A stretch of 64,000 bases of DNA. Source: Candidatus Woesearchaeota archaeon. GTDB lineage: Archaea > Nanobdellota > Nanobdellia > Woesearchaeales > JBBIVF01. Of this stretch, positions 128-59,058 are shown piece by piece; within the stretch, counting starts at the first letter, position 1; the number at the start of each line of letters is the position of its first letter. Below the pieces are notes generated by a model, which had not been told where the DNA came from, searched no databases, and was given only the letters and a program-made list of their open reading frames with translations. Made by a program: the position numbers and the translations under genes. The DNA is taken from NCBI GenBank assembly GCA_037439845.1, contig JBBIVF010000001.1, positions 1,842 to 65,841 on the forward strand. The letters run 5' to 3'.

Positions 128-539
128 TCTATTTGCCTTTCTGTCTTAAATTTTGATAAATATTAATTATTTCAGGTATTTGTTGTAGTTATTTTTATTT
201 TGATGCTAAAAAAATATTCTTTTTTATTTTTTTAGTTGAATGTGTTAAATTAAAGCTTTAAAGGTTTTAGAAGGTCTTTCTTAAATATGTTTGCTTAAAA
301 ATCATATAAGAATCATAGTGCCTAAAAAAATATGGAATTGGATATAGTATTTATTTAAATCAAAATTGAGTTTTATTATAAAAATGTTTCATATTGTATT
401 TTTTTGTTAGCTTTTAATTTATATTTCTGATTTTTATATTATAGAATTATTATTTTTTTTATCATCTATTAAAAATTTTTTATCTGTTAATTCCATATTT
501 TACATCATAATCCTATGCACCACCATATCTGAAAATATT

Positions 540-780
540 TTATAACGGCTTCTGGTTAATAATAATAAGGTTTTTAGGGTTTTTATATTTATTTTAATAT
601 AACGTTAAATTAACGTTATAACGATATTTTTTATAATGTCTTATTAAGGCTCATAAATACGTTATAATCGTTATGAAATCGTTATAACGTTATATAACGA
701 TAACGATAACGGTTATAACGTTATAATAAGTCTTATAAACATGTTTTACAGAAAAATCGTTATAACGGTTGAATTTTTTT
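540..780. repeat. Array of the 10-bp palindrome CGTTATAACG plus variants in an AT-rich intergenic region; possible regulator-binding iterons
   Basis: Perfect copies at 614-623, 680-689 and 768-777. GTTATAACG occurs at 712-720. Variants CGTTATAATCG (660-670), CGTTATATAACG and CGATAACGATAACGG lie between them. Related copies occur inside the adjacent ORF at 1029-1038 and 1050-1077. Confidence 0.7.
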
Positions 781-786
781 CAAAAA

Positions 787-1521
787 TTACTCATAGTTGT
801 AGAACTTCTTTATTTTCTCCTTATTTGAAATGGCGTATAATTTAAGTTTTCCTGGGCCAGAAAAGGCTTCTAAGGGATAATTTTTATTTTTTAAAGCATT
901 AATATAGACCTTTACTGAATTGGGGCTCATATTGAGCTTATTTGCTATATCAAAATATGATAATGGCACTGTAGACTCAAATAACAAGCTTAATATCCTT
1001 TTTTCCGAGCTGGTAAGAACATTAGAAACGTTATAACGCGTTATATCCTTAACGATATTATCGTTAGTAACGTTAGAAGGCCTTTCCTGAAGAGCAACCT
1101 TTTCTATTGTTGTTCTTGTTATTGCGAGCTCTTCAAGAATTTCTTTCTTTAATTGGTCGCGGTCTATTTTAGGAATCTCAACATAAGAGTCGATTATACT
1201 TTTGATATACTCGTCATCTACCTGAGACATAACTTCTAAGATATCCTTAAGTTTCTGAAGCATTTCTAGGATAACTGTGACTTTTTTGTCATGCTCTTTA
1301 TGGAGCTTGTTAAAGTGATTAATCCACTGATAAATTAGGTTTAAGTTCTCTTCGTGGTGTTTTTTTAAGTACTCATGTTTAGTGTGTAGATGATCAACTT
1401 TTTGGTTGAGAACTTCATTAACATATTTAACATGTCTAAAAGAATTGGCTATATTATTTGATAATAAAGAAAGTTCGTTTTTCGAATCTATATTAGTTCT
1501 TCTTTTTCTAAACAAACCCAT
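787..1521 (-). CDS. Hypothetical protein with a C-terminal winged-HTH DNA-binding domain (MarR/ArsR-like)
   Basis: 244-aa ORF. The C-terminus SEKRILSLLFESTVPLSYFDIANKLNMSPNSVKVYINALKNK is a typical wHTH. Its coding sequence itself contains the CGTTATAACG palindrome (1024-1077). Confidence 0.5.
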   Translation of the reverse strand: MGLFRKRRTNIDSKNELSLLSNNIANSFRHVKYVNEVLNQKVDHLHTKHEYLKKHHEENLNLIYQWINHFNKLHKEHDKKVTVILEMLQKLKDILEVMSQVDDEYIKSIIDSYVEIPKIDRDQLKKEILEELAITRTTIEKVALQERPSNVTNDNIVKDITRYNVSNVLTSSEKRILSLLFESTVPLSYFDIANKLNMSPNSVKVYINALKNKNYPLEAFSGPGKLKLYAISNKEKIKKFYNYE

Positions 1522-1984
1522 GCTTAACCCCCCTTTTTTAGGATTCTTTTGGCTCCTTTAAAGTTTAACAATATAAAGTTTGTGAATTATTAAAAACCAA
1601 AAAAAATGAAATTTTTGATATATTTATATATATTATTGATAAAAGTGAGTAATAATTGGGCACTATTATGATTTGAAAAGAAGTTAATAATGAAAAAGTT
1701 TAGTAAAAATTATTAAGTTTTATTGAAATTTTATGCAAAAAAATGGCTTAAAATACTCTTAAAAAATAAAATCACTTTTTTTTAGGCACTATTAATATTA
1801 TTGAAAATTTTTCAAATTTTTTTGTTGGAAATTTTAATATAATATTTTAAGAACTAAAAAACATAAAATTCCTATTCCTAAAGGCCTTTTGTCACAAATT
1901 ATGAACACAAATGTCTAGCGAAACATTTATATATTTAGGTAGTAAGATTTTTTTAGTCTTTTCATAATAAATAAAAGGGGAGAT

Positions 1985-2248
1985 ATGATGGAAGAAGGCA
2001 AATTATTATCTAAGGCACTGATTGGCAAGACTATTGTTTCTAAAACAGGCAAAAAATTTGGTGAAATAGGAGATATAATCTTTGAAACAAGAACAGGAGA
2101 GCTCATTCACCTGGTTGTTGTTAATCCTACTGAATACATCTCTAGGCTAGAGCTTGAGAAGGATAAAGGCGGAGCTTATCTTGTGCCTTATTCTAGTGTT
2201 ATGGCAATAGGAGATTTCGTAGTGATTGCTGAAGAAGATATCATTTAA
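1985..2248 (+). CDS. PRC-barrel domain protein
   Basis: 87 aa. The GKTIVSKTGKKFGEIGDIIFETRTGELIHLVV pattern is typical of small archaeal PRC-barrel proteins. Confidence 0.45.
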   Translation: MMEEGKLLSKALIGKTIVSKTGKKFGEIGDIIFETRTGELIHLVVVNPTEYISRLELEKDKGGAYLVPYSSVMAIGDFVVIAEEDII

Positions 2249-2323: not shown

Positions 2324-3277
2324 ATGGAACATTCGATCTGGACAGAAAAATATAGGCCATCAGAATTCTCTGAAATCATTGGCCAAAAAGATGTTGTCTC
2401 TCGCGTAAAAGCATTTGTTGAGCACAAGAATATGCCTCATTTGCTTTTTACTGGTCCTGCTGGCGTAGGCAAGACTACTTTAGCAATTGTTGTCGCGAAA
2501 AAACTTTTTGGAGAAAATTGGAGAGGAAATTTCCTTGAACTAAATGCTTCTGATGAAAGAGGTATTGAGGTTATCAGGGTAAAAGTGAAAGATTTTGCCA
2601 GAACAAGAAGCATTGGAGATGTGCCTTTCAAAATAATTTATCTTGATGAGTGTGATGCTCTTACAAAAGAAGCCCAACAAGCTCTCAGAAGAACAATGGA
2701 AAATTTTACCCAGACCTGTAGATTCATATTATCTGCGAATTATTCCTCCAAAATCATTGAACCCATACAATCAAGATGCGCTATTTTCAGGTTCAAGCCT
2801 TTGTTGAAAGATGATGTTTTTGAAATTATCGAAAGAATCGCAAAAAATGAAAAACTTTCTATTGACAAAGACGCTAAAGATGCTTTGTATGAAGCCTGTG
2901 AAGGCGACCTCAGAAAATTAGAGAACATAATGCAAGCATGCGCTTCACTCGGAAAAAGCATATATGCTGAAAATGTTTTCTCAATGGCTGCAATGGCAAG
3001 GCCAAAAGAGGTCAAAGAGGTTCTTGAGCTTGCTGTGAAAGGAGATTTTGTAAAAGCAAGAGCAAAATTAATAGATACAATGCTCACTTATGGAATTTCA
3101 GGTCTTGACATGATTAAACAAATACAAAAACATATTCTAGACATTAATATAGACAAGCACAAGAAAATGGAGCTTATAGATTATTGTGGTGAAATAGAGT
3201 TTAGAATGACCGAGGGCTCTGACGAATACTTACAGCTAGACTGCCTGCTGGCAAGAATGGGTGTTGCGGGTAAATAA
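2324..3277 (+). CDS. rfcS: Replication factor C small subunit
   Basis: Walker A GPAGVGKTT, DEAD-like LDECDAL, SRC motif SRCAIFRF, and an N-terminal EKYRP box. 317 aa, no intein. Confidence 0.9.
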   Translation: MEHSIWTEKYRPSEFSEIIGQKDVVSRVKAFVEHKNMPHLLFTGPAGVGKTTLAIVVAKKLFGENWRGNFLELNASDERGIEVIRVKVKDFARTRSIGDVPFKIIYLDECDALTKEAQQALRRTMENFTQTCRFILSANYSSKIIEPIQSRCAIFRFKPLLKDDVFEIIERIAKNEKLSIDKDAKDALYEACEGDLRKLENIMQACASLGKSIYAENVFSMAAMARPKEVKEVLELAVKGDFVKARAKLIDTMLTYGISGLDMIKQIQKHILDINIDKHKKMELIDYCGEIEFRMTEGSDEYLQLDCLLARMGVAGK

Positions 3278-3319: not shown

Positions 3320-4309
3320 TTATTGAGCTGAAACATCTCTTATTTCTAAAGAGGTCTGTGCTCTGTCAAGATATTTGTAGATGAGCTCAATATCAAGTTG
3401 ATGCTCAAACTTGCCCTTGATACCTGAGACATCCAGAGTGCATGAAACTTTTCTTGGAGCTACTGCTCTTGACTCTGTTTCAAATAACTGCACATATCCT
3501 TCAGAAGAACTTGCTGATACTCCTTGCAATCCTGAACAAACTGGTTTTCTCCCATTTAGCTCAGAAGTTATTTTTAGATATACCTTGTTTCTTTCTGGAT
3601 TTGTTACAACATCATCGCAGACTGATTCTGTATATTTGAAGATGCGTCCATTACCCACATGCTCAATGTCAAATGTGAACTGCAGCTTGTCCTGTCCTAG
3701 CGGCTCTTGTCTGAAATTGGTAATGTGTATGGGAGATTTAGATGATTTTGCATCTTTGTAGCCTGAGATCTTGCAGATAGTTTCATCAGACACTATTGCA
3801 TCCAGCAAATTTTCCTTCACACACACCAATGTTGAGGTATATGTAATGTAATTATAGCAAATATCTACTGCTATTGTAGTTTGAGTGTTGCCTCTTATAT
3901 TTCTCTGGTAATTAAGGTTTGGGAATTCAATAACATCTTGGTCTCCTGGAAGTATTGTACCATCAAAATTCTTTGTTGCGCCTTTTAGAGCCGGCAGAGG
4001 TTTCTTAAGGTCTGCTGATGAAACGCCCCAGTCAGAAGGATTTATTCCTGAAAGCTCAACATATCCATCTGCTGCTCCTTTAATATCTGCTTCGCCATTA
4101 TTTGTTATCTTTAATCCTATTCCAAATGGATAGCCTTTATTATCAAAAACATATGGCGGCGGCATACCTGGCATGAATTCCAATGAAAGTCCACCAACTC
4201 CGCCAATAAATGGTTCTGTTGAACCTGTTTGTGTTTCTTGTTTTCCACAACCGAAAATTGTTATAACAACTATTAAGAGAGCCAATATCACAAAAAATTT
4301 CTTATTCAT
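3320..4309 (-). CDS. Secreted lipoprotein, paralog 1 of 3 of an unknown Cys-containing family
   Basis: Signal peptide plus lipobox (IFGCGKQ). Shares GLSLEFMPGMPPPYVF and DICYNYITYTSTLVCV motifs with the two upstream paralogs. Confidence 0.6.
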   Translation of the reverse strand: MNKKFFVILALLIVVITIFGCGKQETQTGSTEPFIGGVGGLSLEFMPGMPPPYVFDNKGYPFGIGLKITNNGEADIKGAADGYVELSGINPSDWGVSSADLKKPLPALKGATKNFDGTILPGDQDVIEFPNLNYQRNIRGNTQTTIAVDICYNYITYTSTLVCVKENLLDAIVSDETICKISGYKDAKSSKSPIHITNFRQEPLGQDKLQFTFDIEHVGNGRIFKYTESVCDDVVTNPERNKVYLKITSELNGRKPVCSGLQGVSASSSEGYVQLFETESRAVAPRKVSCTLDVSGIKGKFEHQLDIELIYKYLDRAQTSLEIRDVSAQ

Positions 4310-4334
4310 CTAAACACCTCCTTTCCTAAGTCAA

Positions 4335-5462
4335 TTAATTTTGTAATATCCTTAATGATCCTTGTATGGAATCATAATAACCATATCCTAGCACTATTCT
4401 TATTGGAGTTTCATAAGCAGATAATCCTTTTGCAGCGTCAGGAACGCAAACAATAGGACTTCCTCCATAAACGTAATTTGTAGTAAATGGGTTTGTTGGT
4501 GGTGCTAAACCCGTGCCTTTGTTTCCATGACAAAATTCACAAGTAATTACTGCTTCATTATTTATCAGCCGTATTTCACCTTCTGGAGTAAGCGGTCTGC
4601 AGGTTTGAGTTATTTCTATGTTTGAAACATAAACAGACGATAACCTGACTTTATTGATATCTTCATAATCAAAATCAGGACATATTTTCTCTCCTTTTAT
4701 AGATTCGACGAGAGAATATGGGAATCCTCTGCCAAGATTCCTTATGTATATCCTAAACTTGGTTTTTGAGGATGTTGTCTCTTGTTCTATTCTTGTTATA
4801 GCAATAGGTGCTGCCTGAGAAGTTAATGTAACATCATGAGGTGAGCATATTTCATTCTCAATACGCTGTGTAAATGGATCTGGATCTATGCATACAGAGG
4901 GATTTGCATAAGTCACATATTTATAGCAAACCTCTACTTTATACTTCTGCTCCATTGAGGTAGGTATTCCTCTTAAATCTGCTTTGGCTTTTATTGTCAT
5001 CAGCTCAGAGTTGCCTAAAGAATTGTATGGGTCTTTTCCATACAGATCAGGCGCGATTGTGCAGCCTGTACTTTCTGGTCTTGGATCGCAGAGATTGTTT
5101 GAATAATCATAACCTTGGAATATTGGGAAATATGTTGTATCTAATCCTGAAACATATAATTTTGCTTCTAATGGAAGTTCAATCATCATTCCACCAAAGA
5201 GATCTTTTGTATATTCATTTGGAAATCCTCCTCTATTATAAACTTCTATCAAAAACTCAAACTCATCTCCATTATAGACCACTGCAGGCGGAGCATTAGG
5301 CAAAAGCCTTAATGTCAGACCCTCAGTGCCTGTTAGATAGGCTGTGCTTGATCTTTTTGCACTGCTTCTATCTTTGCCACAAGAAAACCCAAACATTAGA
5401 AGAGTTAATAAGATACAAAATAACATGAGCTTTGTGGATTTTTCCATTATATATCTTTTCAT
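4335..5462 (-). CDS. Secreted lipoprotein, paralog 2 of 3
   Basis: Signal peptide with GFSCGKD lipobox. Motifs GLTLRLLPNAPPAVVY and VEVCYKYVTYANPSVCIDPD. Confidence 0.6.
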   Translation of the reverse strand: MKRYIMEKSTKLMLFCILLTLLMFGFSCGKDRSSAKRSSTAYLTGTEGLTLRLLPNAPPAVVYNGDEFEFLIEVYNRGGFPNEYTKDLFGGMMIELPLEAKLYVSGLDTTYFPIFQGYDYSNNLCDPRPESTGCTIAPDLYGKDPYNSLGNSELMTIKAKADLRGIPTSMEQKYKVEVCYKYVTYANPSVCIDPDPFTQRIENEICSPHDVTLTSQAAPIAITRIEQETTSSKTKFRIYIRNLGRGFPYSLVESIKGEKICPDFDYEDINKVRLSSVYVSNIEITQTCRPLTPEGEIRLINNEAVITCEFCHGNKGTGLAPPTNPFTTNYVYGGSPIVCVPDAAKGLSAYETPIRIVLGYGYYDSIQGSLRILQN

Positions 5463-5595
5463 TATAAGCTATCTTTAAAAAATAGTATATTTAAACTTTT
5501 CTAAAATGATATTTAAAGTTTACTGTTAAAATTTACTGCTTAGAATAAAAGAGTTTTTGACGATAAAAAATATTTAGTATTGTTGAGTGATAAAG

Positions 5596-6585
5596 TTAAC
5601 TAGGAATCTTTGTTATTCTTGTTCCTGTTGTCCAGGTTTGGGTATAACCATAATCGAATTTTACTATTAAAGGAGAAAGGAAAGACCTTCTTGAGGCAAG
5701 CTCATTTTCCTGAAAACGTTCTGTCCAGCATCTTGTCTTGCCTATATTGTCCTTTATCAAAATATCCTGAGGAGAACAAATTAGTGGCTTGCCCATAAAT
5801 GTGCCATTGAAATGCACAATGTTTATTGTAGACCTGTTGATTGGTTGATTTGAACATGCTTTTTGGATGTCATATATATTCAAAACAGTACCTTCTGCAT
5901 AATTTGTTAATTCAATATAAAATTCTGGCCTGTATGTTGTGTCCCAAGGCAATATTCTTACATCTATCAATGAAACTCCAATAGGTGCGCCTTGACCTGA
6001 AAATTTAAGGGGTTGAAATTCACACACTCCTTTTGTTACTTTAGTAGAATCTGCTGAATCCAAATTCACGCAAATATCAGCAACAAGATATGTAGAGTAA
6101 TCATAGCATGCAGTCACTCTGAACTTCACATCATGATAAAAAGAAAGATTTTCTAATTTTTTTGTCTGAAATCTGAGTATTGCTGTTTCTTCCTGGCCTT
6201 TTTTCTCATATAATGTCTTTCCTGCCAAAGAAAAAGGAACCAATTTGTCTTTTGTTATTGGGGTTTTGGCATAGGTGCCATTATTGAAGATCACATAATC
6301 TTTTTCTGTACCAATACCGAAATATCCGTTTGTTATGTTGAATGCTCCTATGTTTTCTAAATCGAATATTAACTGTATTTCCTGTTGTTCCATAACTTCT
6401 TCTGGAGGTGCATTTGGCATAAAATTCAATTCCAAACCTCCTTTTCCTGAATACAATTGTTTTATCATTCTATCAATTTCTGTAGGAGAAAGAATTGTAT
6501 CTTTTTTTTGGCATGAGCTAAGAATAAGTAAGCTAATTATCAATGCTAGGATTATTGCTTTTTTTATTATTTTCTGATTAATCAT
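5596..6585 (-). CDS. Secreted lipoprotein, paralog 3 of 3
   Basis: Signal peptide with LSSCQKK lipobox. Motifs GGLELNFMPNAPPEEV and VTACYDYSTYLVADICVNLD. Confidence 0.6.
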   Translation of the reverse strand: MINQKIIKKAIILALIISLLILSSCQKKDTILSPTEIDRMIKQLYSGKGGLELNFMPNAPPEEVMEQQEIQLIFDLENIGAFNITNGYFGIGTEKDYVIFNNGTYAKTPITKDKLVPFSLAGKTLYEKKGQEETAILRFQTKKLENLSFYHDVKFRVTACYDYSTYLVADICVNLDSADSTKVTKGVCEFQPLKFSGQGAPIGVSLIDVRILPWDTTYRPEFYIELTNYAEGTVLNIYDIQKACSNQPINRSTINIVHFNGTFMGKPLICSPQDILIKDNIGKTRCWTERFQENELASRRSFLSPLIVKFDYGYTQTWTTGTRITKIPS

Positions 6586-6601
6586 TTTAAGTCTTTTTTA
6601 G

Positions 6602-9580
6602 TTATCTTGTTAATATATCTTGTGGAGTGCCTGTGCCATCATAAATATCTTTACCTAACTCAATCGGGTCTGACTTTTCTGATGCATAGGATATTTCTCC
6701 TGGAGGTTGATTGAGATTAAAGTATGTTCTAATATAATAACAATATTGCTGCTTTTGTAATGAGATTGGAGGACTTAGTGGATACTCGTATTTATCTTTT
6801 CCTAAAGGTGTTATTGATACTGACCTTAATTTATTATTGTCATTGCACAAGAACTCAATAATTTCATATTTTTTTACAATCTCAGGATATTCTTTCTCTA
6901 TTTCATTTGGCTGGAAAGAAATTATTAACTTATTGGCTGAAGTGTTCATAAACACAGTGGGTTTAGATGTGCTTAAGCCTGTATGGGTCGTTCCTAAGGT
7001 TATATTCATTTCTTCTGAATCATTGAAATTGTTTTGTGAATCTATAGCTCTTACCTTATAAGTATATGTACCTGAAAATTTCTCTACACCTATGTATGCG
7101 TATGTCTTATCATAAGGAATATCTGCCACAAATTGGAAATCCTCCATAATATTTGATCTTTTCCTGTATATCTTATATCTAATGTCTTTCTGGTCAATAG
7201 TATGAGGATTCCATGCTAATGCGAGCACAAGTCCTGCGTCTTTTATGTCTTTGAGCATTGTGATTTCTGGCTGAGGTGGAGGTGTAATATCCCATTTTCC
7301 TGCCTCTAGTTCATTTTTACACTTTTGATAATTAGGATATATTTTATTAATATGATTTTTTGTTTCTGGTGGAAGAGAACATTTAGATATACTGCAGGTT
7401 GTTGCATCACAACAGTACTTCATCACATTCCCTATACCCCAATTATATGCTGCCAGCATTAGTTTTATTCTCTCTTCAGGATCTGTAATTCTGTTTTTGA
7501 TTTTTTCTTCTAATTGCATAATCAGCCAATTATAATAAAACATTCCTCCGCCTATGTTAGAGTATGGCAAAAATCTTGAATCTATTTCTGGTAACTGCTG
7601 AGGTGCTATTGAATTTTTAAGTTCCTTTAATTCTTTGACATAATTTGAATCAGGAGAATTGCCTTTGTAATCTTTAAAGAATTTGGTTAATCCTGGTGAA
7701 GGCTTAGCAGACTTTTCCATGTCATATGCTGTACCTGGCATAAGTTGCAAAAGACCTACTGCTCCTTTATTAGAAATAGCGCAAGGATCTCCTGCAGATT
7801 CTTGTAGAATAGAGGCTATTGCTAAACATCTTGGAATTCCTGACTGCTGTTCCCAAAAGTCAATTTCTTTTTTATAGTCGGCATAGATACATTTAAGAAG
7901 ATTCTTGCTTGGACATTCTTCTTTCTTGCCGCATTTAACGAATGCATCTCCAATAGTTGAAACAAACAAAGGCTGCTTTTCTTCACCTGCTATACCTAAT
8001 GTCTCGTCCTTAATAGTTACAACAAATGCCTTGTCTAACTCATAAACATACGATATTGAGGCCTTGATATATCTAACTGTGAGAGGATTGTCTGGCTCCA
8101 TTATATTAGGGTCTATTTTAACTTGACACCTGAATGACTTGAAGTTCTTTATTTCTCTCAAATTTGATACAGAAACATTATATTCATTCACATCAGATTC
8201 CTGGCTTGAGACGAGCAGAGGTTCGAAGAAACAATTTTCTTTTACGAATTCTATCTCTTTTGGCAAAATCAATTTTAAAGATGTGATGTTGATTATTTTG
8301 CCATCTGGCCCCCATTCATTATCTATTGTAATTCCAAATTGAGCAAATGTGACAGGCGCATCTTGAGATTGCTTGACTTCAATCAAGGAAGGTCTCATTT
8401 CCATTCCTATGCTGATTGGTCCTTGGGTATAGATTGCTATTGGCTCTCTTGGTTCTATTTGATATTCTACATATGGATCTATATTCTGAGATTTTAATGT
8501 TCTTACTCTTTCAAAATCAATGAGATTTATCTGAAAGTAAGAGAATGTATCGAAATTGAATGTTGATGTGAAGTGCACTCTGTAAGAGCCAGGGTCTGAA
8601 TTGTACTGGCTTGGGCTGAACCTGCAGTTTATTGTTTCTTCGCCATAATTATAAATTGAGACACTTTTTGGAAATACTCTGTCTGCTTCTACTTTACTTC
8701 CTGAATATTCTATATAGCAATTATTAGTGATATTTATTTCTTGGTTTGAAAGCGTCCTTGCGCTCAATGTTGCCCAGACATCTACATCTTCATCAGAGTA
8801 GAACTCATCTGTTGCTCTTGAGAGGTCTTCAAGTTTTACTCCTAAAGGTGCATCTTTGTTTTCTTCTACTTGACCTATGTAATAATCAGATGTCGCGATC
8901 TGATATTGCTTATCCCAGAAATTTTTTATCGATGTTTTTGTTTCGGAAGTAAGTAAAGCTATGTTTGCCATCCACTTTCCAATTTCTTTTGTTGCAATAG
9001 AAGGGTTCATAATGAATTTGACTACTGACCTCGAGAGTGACAATGTGGACTGCGTCAAGAAAGCAATACCAGCTATCAATACAAGCACAACTAATATTAT
9101 CAAGAAAACCTTTATTATCGAGCCCAATGATGTGCCAACTCCTGAATGAGTTTCTATCTCTATTTTTGTTTCACCTGGTTTGGGGTGAAGTTTTTTTTCT
9201 CTTCTATGTGCAATGAATACAAACAAAAGCCAGAAAGGAAAAATGTCTATCTCAAAAAAACCACCTATACCTTCTATAGCCATGGCCAACCAGCTACTAT
9301 TTCCTATCACAGGTCTTAGCAAAAACCCACCAACAATATCGAATATTGCGCTTGCTGCTGAACCAAAACCCCAAAAAAGACTTAATAATGATAAAAGATC
9401 AAGGATTAATGCATAGACATAAGCCATTGTCCAGTTCCTTTTTGGTGCTTCTCCTGCTGTTGCGGATTTTGAAAGCAAACCTGCCTTATTTGACATCTTG
9501 TTTAGAGCATCTGCTATCTTGTCCATTGCACTTGCTGATTTAGAAGCAGAATCTTTTTTGAAAAAATTCTTTAAGCCCAT
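6602..9580 (-). CDS. Large multi-pass membrane protein with a lytic transglycosylase (SLT) domain and a beta-rich extracellular region
   Basis: 992 aa. N-terminal hydrophobic helices (YVYALILDLLSLLSLFWGF, FPFWLLFVFIAH, IIKVFLIILVVLVLIAGIAFL). SLT signature CLAIASILQESAGDPCAISNKGAVGLLQLMPGTAYD followed by LAAYNWGIGNVMKY. Confidence 0.7.
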   Translation of the reverse strand: MGLKNFFKKDSASKSASAMDKIADALNKMSNKAGLLSKSATAGEAPKRNWTMAYVYALILDLLSLLSLFWGFGSAASAIFDIVGGFLLRPVIGNSSWLAMAIEGIGGFFEIDIFPFWLLFVFIAHRREKKLHPKPGETKIEIETHSGVGTSLGSIIKVFLIILVVLVLIAGIAFLTQSTLSLSRSVVKFIMNPSIATKEIGKWMANIALLTSETKTSIKNFWDKQYQIATSDYYIGQVEENKDAPLGVKLEDLSRATDEFYSDEDVDVWATLSARTLSNQEINITNNCYIEYSGSKVEADRVFPKSVSIYNYGEETINCRFSPSQYNSDPGSYRVHFTSTFNFDTFSYFQINLIDFERVRTLKSQNIDPYVEYQIEPREPIAIYTQGPISIGMEMRPSLIEVKQSQDAPVTFAQFGITIDNEWGPDGKIINITSLKLILPKEIEFVKENCFFEPLLVSSQESDVNEYNVSVSNLREIKNFKSFRCQVKIDPNIMEPDNPLTVRYIKASISYVYELDKAFVVTIKDETLGIAGEEKQPLFVSTIGDAFVKCGKKEECPSKNLLKCIYADYKKEIDFWEQQSGIPRCLAIASILQESAGDPCAISNKGAVGLLQLMPGTAYDMEKSAKPSPGLTKFFKDYKGNSPDSNYVKELKELKNSIAPQQLPEIDSRFLPYSNIGGGMFYYNWLIMQLEEKIKNRITDPEERIKLMLAAYNWGIGNVMKYCCDATTCSISKCSLPPETKNHINKIYPNYQKCKNELEAGKWDITPPPQPEITMLKDIKDAGLVLALAWNPHTIDQKDIRYKIYRKRSNIMEDFQFVADIPYDKTYAYIGVEKFSGTYTYKVRAIDSQNNFNDSEEMNITLGTTHTGLSTSKPTVFMNTSANKLIISFQPNEIEKEYPEIVKKYEIIEFLCNDNNKLRSVSITPLGKDKYEYPLSPPISLQKQQYCYYIRTYFNLNQPPGEISYASEKSDPIELGKDIYDGTGTPQDILTR

Positions 9581-49663: not shown

Positions 49664-49904
49664 TATTTTTTTAATTTTTTTTAATGAATATTTATAATTA
49701 ATTTTTTTCTATATTGATGTTTATTTGTGGTTTATTTTCCATATGAAATTCAGGAGTTTTATGTTGAATATTATCTGAAAAATGTTTAATTTTCTATTAA
49801 TAGGCCTTAAAAATGTATTTTTCCACAGGAAATGAAGGAGGTATATATCTTGGAAAATATTTGTCTTTAAATAAAAGCATTTATAAACTAGTGGATTTTT
49901 AGTA

Positions 49905-49946: not shown

Positions 49947-50495
49947 ATGGATGAGAGCATTAAAAAAAATGTTAAGGTTGTGAATATAGTTGTTTCAAGT
50001 TCACTTGAACACGATATTCCTTTGGAAAAAGTTGCTGCAACATTATCTAATACAGAATACAATCCTGAACAATTTCCTGGATTAGTAATAAGAATAAAAG
50101 AACCAAAAACTTCTGCTCTCATTTTCAGTTCTGGAAAGATTGTGTGCACTGGTGCGAAATCCCTTGACAAAGTAGAAGAATCAATCCAGACAATAATCAA
50201 AAGTTTAGAAAAGATTGGCATACATATTAAGATTAAACCGAAAATTGTTGTGCAGAACATTGTGGCTGCAGGTAACATAAATATGGACCTAAATCTGAAC
50301 ACACTTGCAGTCAAGCTTGAAAACACAGAATATGAACCAGAACAATTCCCTGGTCTTGTCTATAAGCTGGCAGAAGCTAAAGCTACATTCTTGTTATTCT
50401 CAAACGGCAAGATAGTCTGCACAGGAACAAAGAGCGAAGATGAAGTATATACTGCATTGGATATGCTCATTGAGAATCTCAAGAAAGTAAAATAA
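49947..50495 (+). CDS. tbp: TATA-box binding protein
   Basis: Two direct repeats with the NxEYNPEQFPGLV(I/Y)(R/K) signature. 182 aa. Confidence 0.9.
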   Translation: MDESIKKNVKVVNIVVSSSLEHDIPLEKVAATLSNTEYNPEQFPGLVIRIKEPKTSALIFSSGKIVCTGAKSLDKVEESIQTIIKSLEKIGIHIKIKPKIVVQNIVAAGNINMDLNLNTLAVKLENTEYEPEQFPGLVYKLAEAKATFLLFSNGKIVCTGTKSEDEVYTALDMLIENLKKVK

Positions 50496-50570: not shown

Positions 50571-52592
50571 ATGTTAAATGTCAATGAACAAATAAGAAGG
50601 TTTAATGAATTTGTTGAAAAATATTATCTTGACACTTTATTAGAAAATGTCAGAAAGGGCAACAAGTTCCTAAAAGTGGATTTCTTGTTGTTGTCAAAAT
50701 ATGACCCTGAGCTTGCAGAAATTATATTTGAACAACCTGAAGAAGTCTTTAAGGCATTTGAGATTGCTCTTCTTCAATTTGATTATGCTCAAAAACCAGA
50801 TTATGTCAGGGTAAGATTCTATAATCTTCCTCCTTCTTCTTACATAGATATCAGAGACATAAGAGCAAAGGAAATAAACAAATATTTTTATGTAGAGGGA
50901 GTTGTAAGGCAAAAATCTGAAATAAGGCCGCAGGTCACGAGCGCGAGGTTTGAATGTCCTAGTTGCGGCAATATAATGAATGTTCTTCAACTAGATAAGA
51001 AGTTCAAAGAACCATCAAGATGTCCTTGCGGAAGAAGCGGAAAATTCAGGATGATTTCTAAAGAGCTGGTGGATGTGCAAGGACTAGACATAGAAGAAGC
51101 GCCTGAAAATCTCATTGGTGGAGAGCAGCCTAAAAGAATCAAGGTTTTCTTGAAAGAGGACCTTGTTAGTCCAATGTCAGACAAGAAAACAAACCCAGGA
51201 ACAAAGATAAGAGTATTTGGAATATTGAAAGAGGTGCCGATTGTGCTGCAGACAGGAGGCCAAAGCACAAGATTTGACTTGATTATTGAAGCAAATGAGA
51301 TAGAGCCAATCGAGGAGGATTTCGGAGAGCTGGCAATAGATGAGAAAACAAAACAAGAGATTCTTGAATTGAGCAAAGACCCTAAAATCATTCAAAAACT
51401 CATAGACAGCATTGCTCCAAGTATATATGGCCATGAAAGAGTGAAAGAGGCGCTTGTACTTCAATTGTTCGGAGGAGTTAGAAAACAGAGGTCTGATGGA
51501 GTTGTTTCCAGAGGAGATATGCACATCCTTCTCGTCGGAGACCCTGGAAGCGGTAAGAGTCAGTTGCTCAAGAGAACTGCTATTGTTGCACCTAAAGCGA
51601 GATTTGTTTCTGGAAAGGGAGCTTCTGGAGCTGGAATTACTGCAAGCGTTGTCAAGGACGAGTTTCTTAAAGGATGGACACTAGAGGCAGGAGCGCTTGT
51701 TCTTGCACACAAAGGTATGTGCATGATAGACGAGCTTGACAAGATGTCAAAAGAAGACAGGGCTGCGATGCACGAGGCACTTGAGCAGCAGACAGTAACA
51801 ATTTCAAAAGCGAATATTCAAGCCACTTTACGATGCGAGACAACTGTGCTTGCAGCAGCAAATCCAAAGTTCGGAAGATTCGATCCTTTTGAGCTTATTG
51901 CAAAACAGATCGACCTGCCTCCTTCTTTGATAAACAGGTTTGACCTTATTTTTCCGATAAAAGACCTTCCTGACAAGGACCGGGATGATACAATGGCTTC
52001 ATTCATACTCAATATTCACCAGACAAAAAAGACAGGAGATGCAGAAATCAAAACAGATCTTCTTAGAAAATATATTGCATTTGCCAGGCAAAATATTGTT
52101 CCTAGTTTGACTGACAGCGCAGTGCAGGAGATAAAATCATATTATGTCACATTGAGGAGTTCTGGCTCTGATGAAGGAGGAATAAAAAGCGTGCCTATTA
52201 ACGCAAGACAGCTTGAAGGATTGATAAGATTGGCAGAAGCTTCAGCAAGAGCAAGATTATCTGATAAGGTGACGAAAAAAGATGCGAAAAGAGCTATTGA
52301 GTTGCTTGATTTTTGTTTGAGACAGATAGGAGTTGACCCTAAAACAGGAAAACTTGATATTGACAGAATAAGTTCAGGAGTAACTGCATCTGAAAGGTCC
52401 AAAATTTCTGTTGTCAAACAGATAATAGCAGAGCTTGAAGAAAAGCTTGGAAAACAAATACCTATTAAAGAGCTTGTGATAAATGCTGATGAAAAAGGCA
52501 TAGACTCTGCAGAAGTAGAGGATATAATAGAGAAATTGAAAAGGTCAGGAGACATATTCGAACCCGAAAGAGGATTAATACAGAGGTTATAA
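50571..52592 (+). CDS. mcm: MCM replicative helicase
   Basis: C4 Zn finger CPSCGN...CPCG. Walker A GDPGSGKSQLL, Walker B IDELDKM, arginine finger SRFD and a C-terminal wH. 673 aa, no intein. Confidence 0.9.
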   Translation: MLNVNEQIRRFNEFVEKYYLDTLLENVRKGNKFLKVDFLLLSKYDPELAEIIFEQPEEVFKAFEIALLQFDYAQKPDYVRVRFYNLPPSSYIDIRDIRAKEINKYFYVEGVVRQKSEIRPQVTSARFECPSCGNIMNVLQLDKKFKEPSRCPCGRSGKFRMISKELVDVQGLDIEEAPENLIGGEQPKRIKVFLKEDLVSPMSDKKTNPGTKIRVFGILKEVPIVLQTGGQSTRFDLIIEANEIEPIEEDFGELAIDEKTKQEILELSKDPKIIQKLIDSIAPSIYGHERVKEALVLQLFGGVRKQRSDGVVSRGDMHILLVGDPGSGKSQLLKRTAIVAPKARFVSGKGASGAGITASVVKDEFLKGWTLEAGALVLAHKGMCMIDELDKMSKEDRAAMHEALEQQTVTISKANIQATLRCETTVLAAANPKFGRFDPFELIAKQIDLPPSLINRFDLIFPIKDLPDKDRDDTMASFILNIHQTKKTGDAEIKTDLLRKYIAFARQNIVPSLTDSAVQEIKSYYVTLRSSGSDEGGIKSVPINARQLEGLIRLAEASARARLSDKVTKKDAKRAIELLDFCLRQIGVDPKTGKLDIDRISSGVTASERSKISVVKQIIAELEEKLGKQIPIKELVINADEKGIDSAEVEDIIEKLKRSGDIFEPERGLIQRL

Positions 52593-56905: not shown

Positions 56906-57050
56906 CTTTAATCGGGTTTTTTTTGGTTCTTTTAAAAAGTTTTCTAATACTGAAACACCATATGTCCTTTGTTTCGTGTGGAGGTGAAATTTTAGAAAAG
57001 AGTAGTTAGAACAGAGTAGTCTGGTTTTATTCAGTGAATATTTAGTGAAT

Positions 57051-57190
57051 TATAAGTAAAAGTTTATATTATTATAAGTAAAAGTTTATTATAAGTAAAA
57101 GTTTATATTATTATAAGTAAAAGTTTATATTATTATAAGTAAAAGTTTATTATAAGTAAAAGTTTATATTATTATAAGTAAAAGTTTATA
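57051..57190. repeat. Seven tandem copies of the 17-bp core TATAAGTAAAAGTTTAT, spaced 22/17/22/22/17/22; candidate origin-recognition (ORB-like) repeats
   Basis: Core ATAAGTAAAAGTTTAT starts at 57052, 57074, 57091, 57113, 57135, 57152 and 57174. It lies about 630 bp upstream of orc1/cdc6, next to a stretch that is more than 85% AT. Confidence 0.8.
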
Positions 57191-57199
57191 GAGGGTGTT

Positions 57200-57560
57200 T
57201 TGTGATTTCTATAAGGAAGGTGGTTTTTTGAAAAATAATGATTTTTTGTTTGGATTTGGTTTTTTATTGATTTTTATTTTTTTATTATTTATTTAATTTT
57301 TATTTTTAGTTTTTATTATATTTTTTTAGTTGATTTAACAATATGTTAGTTTTTATTCTTTTAATATTAATTTTATTTTTCAATGTTAGTTTTATTTTTA
57401 ATATTAAACATATTTTTATTTCATTTCATAATTTTCCATATAGAAACCAAATTTTTCGAACATGACAAAAATAAAAAAATTTCTTAGAATTTTGTTTAAT
57501 TTTACTTGAAAAAATGATTATTTTCTATATTTTTTCGTTAAAAAATTAATTTATTGAATA
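57200..57560. other. Extremely AT-rich stretch; candidate DNA unwinding element of oriC
   Basis: Almost pure A/T runs (tttttattgatttttatttttttattatttatttaattttt...) between the tandem repeats and orc1/cdc6. Confidence 0.4.
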
Positions 57561-57786
57561 ATTATTTAAAATACACTTTATTAAAAACAAAAGAGATGAT
57601 AAAAATCAAAAGACTCTGATATCACTTCAACACCAAAAAATTCAAATATTTCCAAATGAAATAGAGGTGTGTTGGTGTCTAAATCTGAAATCTAATGGCT
57701 AAATTAAAAAGGCGCTATAAACTATATATTCTATTATAATAAGGATTATTTCACAATGACAACAATTTAATCCCTCAAAACAAACA

Positions 57787-57794
57787 TTTATATA
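57787..57794 (+). promoter_or_regulatory. Putative TATA box (tttatata) for orc1/cdc6, consistent with a leaderless transcript
   Basis: The octamer ends 25 nt upstream of the ATG at 57820. Typical archaeal TATA-to-TSS spacing would put the TSS at or near the start codon. Confidence 0.3.
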
Positions 57795-57819
57795 CCTCTG
57801 TTTCGAATGGAAAAATCTC

Positions 57820-59058
57820 ATGAATAACGAAAAACCCAAAATCTCTGATTATTTTGAATCATTCATCAAAAAAACACCTATTTTCTTGGATAAAAAGGTA
57901 CTTCAAGCACCCTATATGCCAGAAAATATTCCTCACAGAGATAATGAAGTGCAAAAAATCGCAAACATACTTGCGCCTGTCTTAAGAATGGAAAAACCTT
58001 CAAATCTTTTCATATATGGAAAAACAGGGACCGGAAAGACACTATCTGTAAAGCACGTCTCCAATGAAATCCTCAAAATTGCTCAAAGAGAAAATATCAA
58101 TGTGAAAATATTCTATATTAATTGCAAATTGAAAAAAGTAACAGACACAGAATATAGATTACTGGCTCATCTTGTCAGTGGTTTCGGAAAAGAAATACCT
58201 CCAACAGGATTGCCTACTGATGAAGTATATAACATTTTTTTCAAGCTGCTTGATTCTGAAAAACAACTTGTAATATTGGTGCTGGATGAGATAGATCAAT
58301 TATATAAGACCGGAAATGAAATACTATATAATCTAACCAGGATAAATTCAGAGTTAAAAAATTCACAATTATCCATTGTAGGAATATCAAATGACCTGAC
58401 ATTCACCGACTCATTAGATCCAAGAGTAAAATCATCATTATCGGAAGAGGAGATAATATTTCCGCCATACAATGCAATCCAGCTTCAAGACATACTTTTC
58501 CAGAGAGCGAAATATGCATTCAGAGAAAACTCAATAACAGAAGGAGTAATTCACAAATGCGCGGCATACGCTGCAAGAGAACACGGAGATGCGAGAAGAG
58601 CACTTGAGCTTCTGAGAGTAGCAGGAGAATTGGCAGAAAGAGAAGGCTCTGATATTGTTCAATTAAAACACATAGATGAGGCAGAAGAAAAAATAGAGAA
58701 AGACAGGGTAATCGATATAACAAAGACACAACCAAAACAATTCCAGGCAACACTTTTCGCAATTCTCAGCATTGAAAACAAACAAAAAAACGACAAGCTA
58801 TCAAAACACAACAAACCAGCAATATATACAGGAGATGTCTATGACCTCTATAAAAGCATATGCGACAAGATAGGATTGAGACCCCTGACACAAAGAAGAG
58901 TGTCTGACATCCTCGCCGAGTTAGATATGATGGGAATAATCAATGCAAAAGTAATATCATATGGAAGATACGGCAGGACAAGAGAAATAACCGTATCATT
59001 GTCTCAGCAAGTGAGAGAAAATATAGAAAAAAACCTAAAGCAAGAACTCCATCTTTAG
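57820..59058 (+). CDS. cdc6: Orc1/Cdc6 replication initiator
   Basis: Walker A GKTGTGKT, Walker B LDEID and sensor motifs. C-terminal winged helix. 412 aa. Confidence 0.9.
   Translation: MNNEKPKISDYFESFIKKTPIFLDKKVLQAPYMPENIPHRDNEVQKIANILAPVLRMEKPSNLFIYGKTGTGKTLSVKHVSNEILKIAQRENINVKIFYINCKLKKVTDTEYRLLAHLVSGFGKEIPPTGLPTDEVYNIFFKLLDSEKQLVILVLDEIDQLYKTGNEILYNLTRINSELKNSQLSIVGISNDLTFTDSLDPRVKSSLSEEEIIFPPYNAIQLQDILFQRAKYAFRENSITEGVIHKCAAYAAREHGDARRALELLRVAGELAEREGSDIVQLKHIDEAEEKIEKDRVIDITKTQPKQFQATLFAILSIENKQKNDKLSKHNKPAIYTGDVYDLYKSICDKIGLRPLTQRRVSDILAELDMMGIINAKVISYGRYGRTREITVSLSQQVRENIEKNLKQELHL

Follow-up and report, generated by a model that had tools for sequence, protein, structure and literature searches.

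What is one 10-bp palindrome, CGTTATAACG, doing in close-packed copies just past the end of a single gene and also inside it? The question is raised by the beginning of a 64-kb stretch of DNA, the chromosomal DNA of a low-GC archaeon (hereafter the window, meaning the whole stretch, with all window positions counted from its first letter). There, an intergenic region of 659 bp (128-786) reaches from the start of the TyrRS gene to the 3' end of an open reading frame (ORF), 787-1521, that encodes a winged helix-turn-helix (wHTH) protein, and palindromes are found in both the intergenic region and the ORF. Judged from sequence comparisons, these palindromes are very likely the cognate site cluster of the protein encoded by ORF 787-1521, and the gene and its sites very probably form a self-contained cis/trans module that is conserved across Woesearchaeota and Nanoarchaeota. 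The features on which the argument turns are the following.

127, minus strand: start of the TyrRS gene
128-537: AT-rich spacer without CpG, separating the array from the TyrRS start
538-767, no strand: intergenic palindrome array, beginning 20 bp past the wHTH stop codon
614-623, no strand: perfect CGTTATAACG, preceded by two TAACGTTA units (600-607 and 611-618)
680-728: densest block, made up of CGTTATAACG (680), CGTTATATAACG (688), ATAACG ATAACG (700, 706), GGTTATAACG (711), and CGTTATAATA (719)
758-767: perfect CGTTATAACG, 20 bp past the stop codon, followed by a T5 run on the gene strand
787-1521, minus strand: wHTH ORF, from the ORF list
1027-1076: intragenic cluster, in codons of the disordered linker (residues 149-165, part of ...PSNVTNDNIVKDITRYNVSNV...)
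1522-1984: upstream intergenic region (promoter side) of the wHTH gene, with a single CpG

The palindrome array in the window

Exactly four copies of CGTTATAACG occur in the 64 kb (at 614, 680, 758, and 1029) against an expectation of 0.01 per window, and none of 100 dinucleotide-preserving shuffles attained four. The motif is not found at a similar density elsewhere, as the other 63 kb of the window contain no copy at all. Three of the perfect copies are intergenic and the fourth (1029) is within ORF 787-1521. An earlier note on this DNA had placed at least four perfect copies in about 240 intergenic bp; its description is otherwise accurate, including its statement that further copies lie inside the ORF, where they form the cluster at 1027-1076. 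Six variants with at most two mismatches accompany the perfect copies at the locus (538, 660, 711, 719, 1039, and 1071), and the 11 such matches elsewhere in the window are not above chance for that remainder. A 12-bp variant, CGTTATATAACG, occupies 688-699, and more half-sites are found at 598, 669, 693, 700, and 706, so that the intergenic array (538-767) holds three perfect CGTTATAACG, four ten-mer variants, one 12-bp variant, and at least five additional half-sites.

The half-site TATAACG is a sharper measure of the clustering than the full palindrome. It occurs 17 times in the window, compared to 2.4 expected, and 16 of these copies lie within 541-1045; likewise, 25 of the 41 window copies of TAACG/CGTTA fall in 530-1085. 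CpG counts follow the same outline, with 14 in 530-790 (all of them motif-derived), none in 128-530, and one in 1522-1984. Within the densest block, adjoining sites have their terminal CG in common. The T5 run that comes after 758-767 on the gene strand is a possible archaeal terminator, and this perfect site is therefore probably in the 3' untranslated region (UTR). Perfect and mismatch scans found no palindrome copies on the promoter side of the gene (1522-1984).

The intragenic cluster consists of a perfect CGTTATAACG (1029-1038), a half-site, CGTTATA (1039-1045), a 17-bp palindrome, TAACGATATTATCGTTA (1050-1066), and TAACGTTA (1068-1075). Rare codons form this motif: T161 is encoded by ACG (3.5% of Thr codons) and R162 by CGT (2.5% of Arg codons), and three of the five linker Asn residues (N150, N153, and N164) use AAC (27% of Asn codons). 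Because the sites fall in a tolerant, disordered linker and draw on rare ACG and CGT codons, they appear to have been selected at the DNA level in a segment of the protein that tolerates them. In one clade of homologs, the linker carries repetitive peptides (VINVNNVNN, NVDNVDNV, RYNGYNG, and HYNAYNG) whose coding DNA is made up of strings of array half-sites; more distant homologs have no site-encoding linker.

The protein family and its arrays in related loci

The product of ORF 787-1521 is 244 residues long. An AlphaFold2 model (23 homologs; mean predicted local distance difference test score, pLDDT, 82.6) lays it out as a helix of about 105 residues (10-113), a helix at 119-145, a disordered linker at 147-165 (pLDDT below 50), and a C-terminal wHTH at 171-241. 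Pfam matches the C-terminus with HTH_11 (1.4e-8) and HTH_24 (3.1e-6) on residues 172-224, and only the generic HTH_11, HTH_24, and HTH_Mga models score above their cut-offs, all within residues 168-224. These matches and the model bear out the reading of the ORF as ending in a wHTH, whose core is similar to those of ArsR, SmtB, and MarR. A PDB sequence search, NCBIfam, and PHROGs returned nothing specific for the protein (NCBIfam matches were far under cut-offs), and no Rep, initiator, NTPase, ATPase, or helicase-loader domain was found in it with Pfam, NCBIfam, or PHROGs.

A word-indexed protein search returned the wHTH protein alone. With HMMER run in full against 1.8 billion representatives, 84 relatives (at 50% clustering) came to light, 19 of them at E <= 1e-10, and most relatives match the protein in length and architecture; no viral homologs were found. 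NCBI names one relative 'winged helix-turn-helix domain-containing protein [Candidatus Woesearchaeota archaeon]', and the genome records of the relatives are Woesearchaeota, Nanoarchaeota, or Nanobdellota bins (DPANN). Some third-party annotation (TPA) bins with relatives are titled Methanosarcinales; L011, L015, L026, L027, L031, and L032 have 38-52% GC and the other six 24-40% (L numbers designate related loci throughout). The family is thus an uncharacterized one that is found in Woesearchaeota and Nanoarchaeota genome bins.

Loci were retrieved for homologs 23-43% identical to the window protein, and their GC content ranges from 24 to 52%. In 27 of these loci, 97 copies of YRTTATAAYR fall within 700 bp past the stop codon (18.9 kb in all) versus 16 in the other 243 kb, an enrichment of about 78-fold, and 25 of the 27 have at least one copy within those 700 bp. 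The orthologous loci, then, have the motif, and the earlier proposal of a specific multi-site array is supported by this pairing with the gene. The number of sites per locus is 5-16. A spacing of exactly 10 bp was counted 67 times and one of exactly 12 bp 31 times among 140 neighbor spacings no longer than 60 bp (98 of 140 together); therefore, successive dyads lie about one helical turn apart.

The arrangement of the sites differs between clades. In L002 (protein P0003), CGTTATAACG precedes the ATG by 98 bp, recurs in the linker codons (one copy), and appears twice more just past the stop codon. All 14 TATAACG copies of this 10.7-kb locus fall between 4903, which is 98 bp before the ATG, and 6649, which is about 0.9 kb beyond the stop. 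Higher-GC relatives (L006 and L009-L015) use a variant unit, CATTATAATG/CGTTATAATG, in three to six abutting copies directly past the stop. In a distant clade (L016-L031), the order outward from the stop codon is one site, CAATGTT half-site repeats, an AT-rich spacer, and a tight array of five to six abutting CATT(AT/GC/GT)AATG units. Long AT-rich stretches follow the wHTH gene in most homolog loci, often as conserved intergenic regions of 300-900 bp in otherwise compact genomes. The non-coding flanks of the window gene (659 and 463 bp) are likewise long for this genome. Flanking genes vary between clades, and the gene beyond the array varies with them (TyrRS, THUMP, or GlmM; convergent in at least six loci); the gene and its array are the part that is kept together. 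Blastn and tblastx comparisons between loci detected the arrays only, with no sign of a small ORF or an RNA conserved in the intergenic DNA downstream.

The pairing was also seen from the DNA side. A DNA-only scan of metagenomes with the pattern CATTRYAATGN{0,2}CATTRYAATG was too permissive, and among the 80 loci examined, chance pairs and eukaryote-like tandem satellites (for example, CATTACAATG) made up the majority. Archaeal-type contigs supplied five genuine palindrome arrays, each of them located 3' of a gene of the family.

Of the arguments at hand for the encoded protein as the reader of the array sites, the strongest is that site type tracks the recognition helix. For each locus, the third wHTH helix (the recognition helix in this fold) was compared with the type of half-site. 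Lys-type helices, S-[PA]-[NG]-x-x-K-V, are found in the window protein and in L001, L002, L153, L154, and L155, and all six go with TAACG-type half-sites (fraction 0.86-1.0). In contrast, Arg-type helices, [ST]-x-[NS]-T-x-R-V, go with mostly TAATG-type half-sites in 31 of 31 cases (fraction 0-0.64). One of the window protein's four closest relatives, P0004 (L156), is nonetheless Arg-type with a CATTATAATG array, which looks like an independent switch. Together with the conserved pairing and the rare-codon intragenic sites, this covariation supports the suggestion of the earlier note that the wHTH protein may bind its own locus.

A second motif is also present at the locus. TAGTGCCYAA has three exact copies in the window, all of them at the wHTH locus, versus 0.13 expected:

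316-325, plus strand: TAGTGCCTAA box, beyond the array and inverted relative to the two upstream copies
1656-1665, minus strand: TAGTGCCCAA box, 143 bp upstream of the wHTH ATG, on the gene strand
1782-1791, minus strand: TAGTGCCTAA box, 269 bp upstream of the wHTH ATG, on the gene strand

Seven distant loci (L016, L017, L018, L020, L023, L024, and L031) have AGTGCCTAA ahead of an operon for a 'YAYLV'-motif protein, a Fap7/AK6-like kinase, and, last, the wHTH protein, where it is placed after a TATA-like box and before the ATG of the opening gene; in L156 the wHTH gene itself is preceded by the box at a distance of 131 bp. From its placement, the TAGTGCCYAA box is probably a promoter-proximal element of the wHTH transcription unit. 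The window promoter region has this box and no palindrome, which argues against simple promoter-operator autoregulation here.

Another promoter-side motif, CTCACTTTT, is found at 1641-1649 (minus strand) in the window and in several copies in L002 (11), L017 (8), L028 (10), and L025 (6); in L002 it stands on both sides of the wHTH gene in opposite orientations. It was rejected as a module-specific box because it is common between the genes of some genomes, and its role in the lineage may be a general one, associated with promoters or terminators.

Possible roles of the array

We tentatively favor an architectural or centromere-like role for the array rather than a regulatory one, at somewhat less than an even chance; this role and the assignment of the sites to their own protein, taken jointly, seem to us evenly poised between right and wrong. 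In such a scheme, the protein would dimerize through its N-terminal helix of about 105 residues, and its two wHTH domains, carried on flexible linkers of about 20 residues, would read the half-sites of YRTTATAAYR (here CGTTA and TAACG). Because the sites abut or overlap, several dimers would be expected to load side by side on one face of the DNA, giving a nucleoprotein complex of 50-230 bp next to the gene and, in this clade, also inside it. The complex itself would be the product, a single-locus architectural or centromere-like mark whose coiled-coil rods would be available for bridging or tethering, and any feedback on expression of the protein would be incidental. We favor this role because of the number and phasing of the sites, their usual position past the stop codon in long conserved non-coding regions of compact genomes, the lack of a second target in the 64 kb, the long rod-like helix, and the parallel with ParB/parS, ParR/parC, TubR/tubC, AspA, and SegB, whose sites also lie in or next to their own genes.

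The parallels are partial in each case. As with ParB-parS, palindromic sites lie next to and in the gene of their binder (in Bacillus subtilis, the first parS was reportedly found within the spo0J coding sequence), the locus is origin-proximal in at least one clade, and a higher-order complex would form at a defined chromosomal site. However, Pfam and NCBIfam detect no ParB/Srx CTPase domain in the wHTH protein; its N-terminus is a single long helix, and a long coiled coil carries its DNA-binding domain, a wHTH. Each site spans 10 bp instead of 16 bp, the sites are packed in one array rather than scattered, and no ParA, CbiA, or MinD-type domain was found among the neighbors in the window, L002, L007, or L153-L156. 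In ParR-parC (ten 11-bp repeats) and TubR-tubC (12-bp repeats bound by a wHTH protein), direct repeats are located upstream of an operon with an actin- or tubulin-like NTPase. The module shares with them phased 10-12-bp units beside the binder's gene, an implied cooperative loading on one face, and, with TubR, the wHTH fold, but it is chromosomal, its units are palindromes that usually lie 3' of the gene, and no ParM- or TubZ-type motor gene was found among its neighbors. These plasmid centromere arrays are treated in a review (PMC9178275). Closer in lineage are AspA of the Sulfolobus plasmid pNOB8 and SegB of SegAB, archaeal dimeric site-specific binders of which AspA is a wHTH protein (PMC5120986). 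Both have palindromes next to their own genes that are proposed centromeres, with autoregulation not excluded; AspA binds a single 23-bp site, from which it spreads, and shares its transcript with ParB and ParA, and SegB is always paired with SegA (PMC5120986). Neither has a long coiled coil, and ParB, ParA, or SegA partners were not found beside the wHTH gene here. RacA-ram (B. subtilis) and MatP-matS (Escherichia coli) also join a DNA-binding domain to a coiled coil and use short palindromes for anchoring or bridging; the domain order here is reversed compared to RacA, and there is no sequence relationship. Unlike the array here, with its single locus, the ram and matS sites are dispersed along hundreds of kilobases.

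Several points weigh against an architectural or centromere-like role, or against the evidence on which it draws. No partner NTPase of the ParA/SegA, ParM, or TubZ type was found conserved nearby in the window or the relatives, which weakens a classical partition reading. The window array is less regular than those of the relatives, its sites overlapping or irregularly spaced instead of abutting at 10 or 12 bp, and the uniqueness of the cluster covers 64 kb here and about 12 kb per related locus. The complete separation of site types by Lys- and Arg-type helices (Mann-Whitney p = 1.2e-4) is not corrected for phylogeny, and Pro versus Ile/Val/Leu/Met at other helix positions shift along with Lys/Arg. 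Linker codon type (AAC vs AAT) does not reliably match array type across loci (Spearman coefficient 0.57, p = 0.08, n = 10, suggestive at most), and L006 and L009 run counter to the match. Finally, the wHTH core resembles those of ArsR/SmtB/MarR repressors, the arrays of L153 and L154 are upstream of the gene and overlap its promoter, and L002, L006, L009, and L028 have a single upstream site about 100-270 bp from the gene; both of these placements fit ordinary autoregulation.

The last points favor an ordinary operator, the main rival reading, in which the wHTH protein, as a repressor or activator, would autoregulate its gene (by an intragenic or 3' roadblock, with promoter sites in some lineages) and maybe also control the adjacent gene, here TyrRS; such control would suit the L009-L015 clade, where about 100-400 bp separate the array from the next same-strand gene downstream. 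We consider this rather unlikely. In most loci the sites are past the stop codon, the gene beyond them changes identity or converges on them, and the window promoter region contains no site. In addition, 5-16 phased sites with conserved 300-900-bp spacers are more than autoregulation needs, and a regulator with itself as the sole visible target explains little. The likeness to ArsR/SmtB and MarR regulators lies in the winged helix-turn-helix fold; no HTH_5, HTH_20, or MarR model of Pfam and no NCBIfam model matches, no sensing site is recognizable, and dimerization would have to occur through the N-terminal helix of about 105 residues instead of wHTH-flanking helices. An RNA-level element, with the array transcribed as 3' UTR, antisense, or non-coding RNA and the palindromes acting as hairpins, is extremely improbable. 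The array of L011-L014 is probably in the mRNA, since it begins 4-25 bp past the stop codon and an oligo-T run comes after it, and the promoter-type TAGTGCCTAA box at 316 in the window is directed towards the array. However, every unit is a dyad, as expected of the target of a dimeric DNA binder, site type tracks the recognition helix, two loci (L153 and L154) have the array upstream of the gene, and the intergenic regions are conserved in their palindromes only. Rfam detected no family in these regions, where it gave only chance miRNA-like matches to the palindromes. It is hardly credible that the array has no function and represents low-complexity AT-rich repeat drift, a repeat of the miniature inverted-repeat transposable element (MITE) kind, or a mobile-element remnant. 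The region is AT-rich, tandem satellites of similar words occur in unrelated metagenome contigs, and in L153 a tyrosine recombinase gene adjoins the module, but the motif contains CpG in a CpG-poor setting, is conserved beside one gene family across 24-52% GC, and is confined to a single locus per region examined, in a family for which viral homologs were not found. The enrichment across 27 loci and the helix covariation have already largely refuted this explanation.

An accessory origin of replication is a further alternative, with palindrome clusters flanking an AT-rich unwinding region and the wHTH protein as initiator or origin-binding factor; an analogue would be oriC3 of Sulfolobus, which has WhiP encoded next to it. 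The features that bear on it lie mostly at the far end of the window:

49818-49841, minus strand: strong origin recognition box (ORB), CCTCCTTCATTTCCTGTGGAAAAA, in the 283-bp region upstream of TBP-MCM, 48 kb from the wHTH gene
49947-50495: TBP gene
50571-52592: MCM gene
56906-57819: 915-bp AT-rich non-coding region upstream of orc1/cdc6
57647: weak ORB-like site
57820-59058: Orc1/Cdc6 gene, about 56 kb from the wHTH locus

These ORBs were located with a weight matrix built from the copies of 12 relatives and run on the window; it found none in 1-2400. L006 and L009-L015 have a pair of canonical ORBs (CCCCCATSATTTCCWNTGGAAA), direct copies spaced by about 85 bp, between the TBP and wHTH genes, 100-375 bp upstream of the latter and with MCM next to TBP, whereas L016-L032 have no ORB within 6 kb. 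Because the window ORB stands by TBP-MCM, and the window wHTH gene and L016-L032 are without one, the ORBs go with TBP-MCM and not with the module, and an origin at the wHTH locus was rejected as a general explanation. The ORB upstream of TBP-MCM could mark an origin or Orc1-dependent control of these two genes. The best origin candidate of the window, and probably the chromosomal origin, is the 915-bp region upstream of orc1/cdc6, which includes the 300 bp richest in AT anywhere in the window (11% GC from 57276) and seven tandem TTATAAGTAAAAGTTTATA(TTA) copies (about 57047-57190, with periods of 17 and 22 bp).

An accessory origin at the wHTH locus would draw on the composition of the locus and on its setting in one clade. 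The flanks of the gene hold the second and third most AT-rich 300-bp stretches of the window; positions 1-786 (including the first 127 bp of the TyrRS gene) have 22% GC, and the 300-bp stretch from 176, among the window's three most AT-rich, has 16.7%. Relatives have two site clusters with AT- and T-rich spacers between them, one clade has the module adjoining ORBs and MCM, and the wHTH domains of homologs give weak PHROG matches to replication-initiator and DnaD-like families (E ~1e-3). Those matches, however, span the generic HTH only, the protein has no ATPase, helicase-loader, or Rep domain, and the ORBs and the better candidate region lie elsewhere; we regard an accessory origin as very unlikely. 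The term 'iteron array' in the earlier note is not apt, because the units are 10-bp palindromes and not direct repeats, and neither a Rep domain (Rep_3/WH1-WH2) nor 17-22-bp direct iterons were found. The plasmid-like or accessory replication element that the note had also entertained is disfavored by the core chromosomal genes of the window, by the lack of viral homologs and of a Rep, initiator, or NTPase domain, and by an ORB and orc1/cdc6 located 49-57 kb away.

Systems of the kind proposed here, in which the cognate sites of a site-specific binder cluster at the gene of that binder, are known. New are the protein family, the layout of a palindrome array 3' of the gene, and the sites embedded in linker codons. 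Our literature search found no description of the motif, the family, or wHTH palindromes of DPANN archaea, and the curated libraries (Pfam, NCBIfam, and PHROGs) hold no model for the family. DPANN archaea have shed most regulators, and to our knowledge essentially nothing is established about the organization and segregation of their chromosomes. In this setting, a dedicated DNA-binding protein and a unique phased array are kept across a lineage in an unusually long non-coding region of a compact genome, and this retention makes the module a concrete candidate for an archaeal centromere-like or architectural element. A more far-reaching version, which we judge distinctly unlikely, is a lineage-specific kinetochore-like system in Woesearchaeota and related tiny-genome DPANN, in which a coiled-coil wHTH protein would sit on a unique phased array beside its own gene and its rods of about 150 Å would tether or pair the site for segregation or organization, with no ParA-type motor encoded nearby; in one clade the sites would be written in the protein's own linker codons, so that selection on DNA sites would dictate part of the protein. 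The module makes predictions that can be tested in vitro (i.e., binding specificity, a Lys/Arg to CG/CA specificity switch, and cooperative loading of dimers). It also offers a clear case of binding sites embedded in the coding sequence of their own binder, at a visible cost in rare codons and repetitive linker peptides. Should plain autoregulation be true, the module would still represent, for an uncultured phylum, a new family of transcription factors whose motif is defined.

Neighboring genes and additional elements

The Fap7/AK6-like kinase, of a kind that acts in ribosome biogenesis, is a recurrent neighbor of the module. The wHTH gene is often the last of an apparent operon, after a protein of about 180 residues, which begins MFIRxKKIK..YAYLV..W.K.GPRQK, and the kinase (AAA_18). 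The two are encoded by separate genes upstream of the wHTH gene in L016-L018, L020, L024, and L028-L031 and are fused in L021 and L023. The association is also recorded for L001, and in L002 and L156 the kinase gene is convergent, on the other side of the array.

Additional elements were noted in single loci or subclades. In one subclade, a conserved box, AACTATGTAA(A/T), is present in the AT-rich spacer between two palindrome clusters, at the following numbers of bases past the stop codon:

L025: D445
L026: D181
L027: D168
L028: D340
L030: D156

In L030 (from the complete Woesearchaeota chromosome OY970338.1), three direct GTCCCTCAGGAAAA repeats come after the palindrome array, about 470-520 bases past the stop. 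In L153 (3638-4213, minus strand), a short homolog, P0005 (187 residues), has an array of seven CGTTATAACG upstream of its gene, and the tyrosine recombinase (Phage_integrase) gene is convergent and immediately downstream of it. Single half-sites about 3.6-4.0 kb downstream in L010-L015 were considered as a regulon site and rejected as coincidental, since they fall in ESYND codons of a conserved large ORF.

On the promoter side of the window gene, two genes follow:

1985-2248, plus strand: PRC-barrel protein of 87 residues, divergent from the wHTH gene, with the RFC small subunit as its immediate downstream neighbor
2324-3277: RFC small subunit

PRC-barrel proteins are tied to archaeal cell division; the adjacency of PRC-barrel and wHTH genes is seen in this genome only. 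Further genes of the window include eRF1, PheRS, RNase J, SecDF, HerA, TBP, MCM, and Orc1/Cdc6. The minus-strand stretch 3320-9580 holds three consecutive paralogous genes (329, 375, and 329 residues), whose products begin with a signal or lipobox-like sequence and match nothing in Pfam, and after them comes a 992-residue protein with an SLT lytic transglycosylase domain. The genes at 3320-9580 may form a cell-surface or host-interaction cluster.

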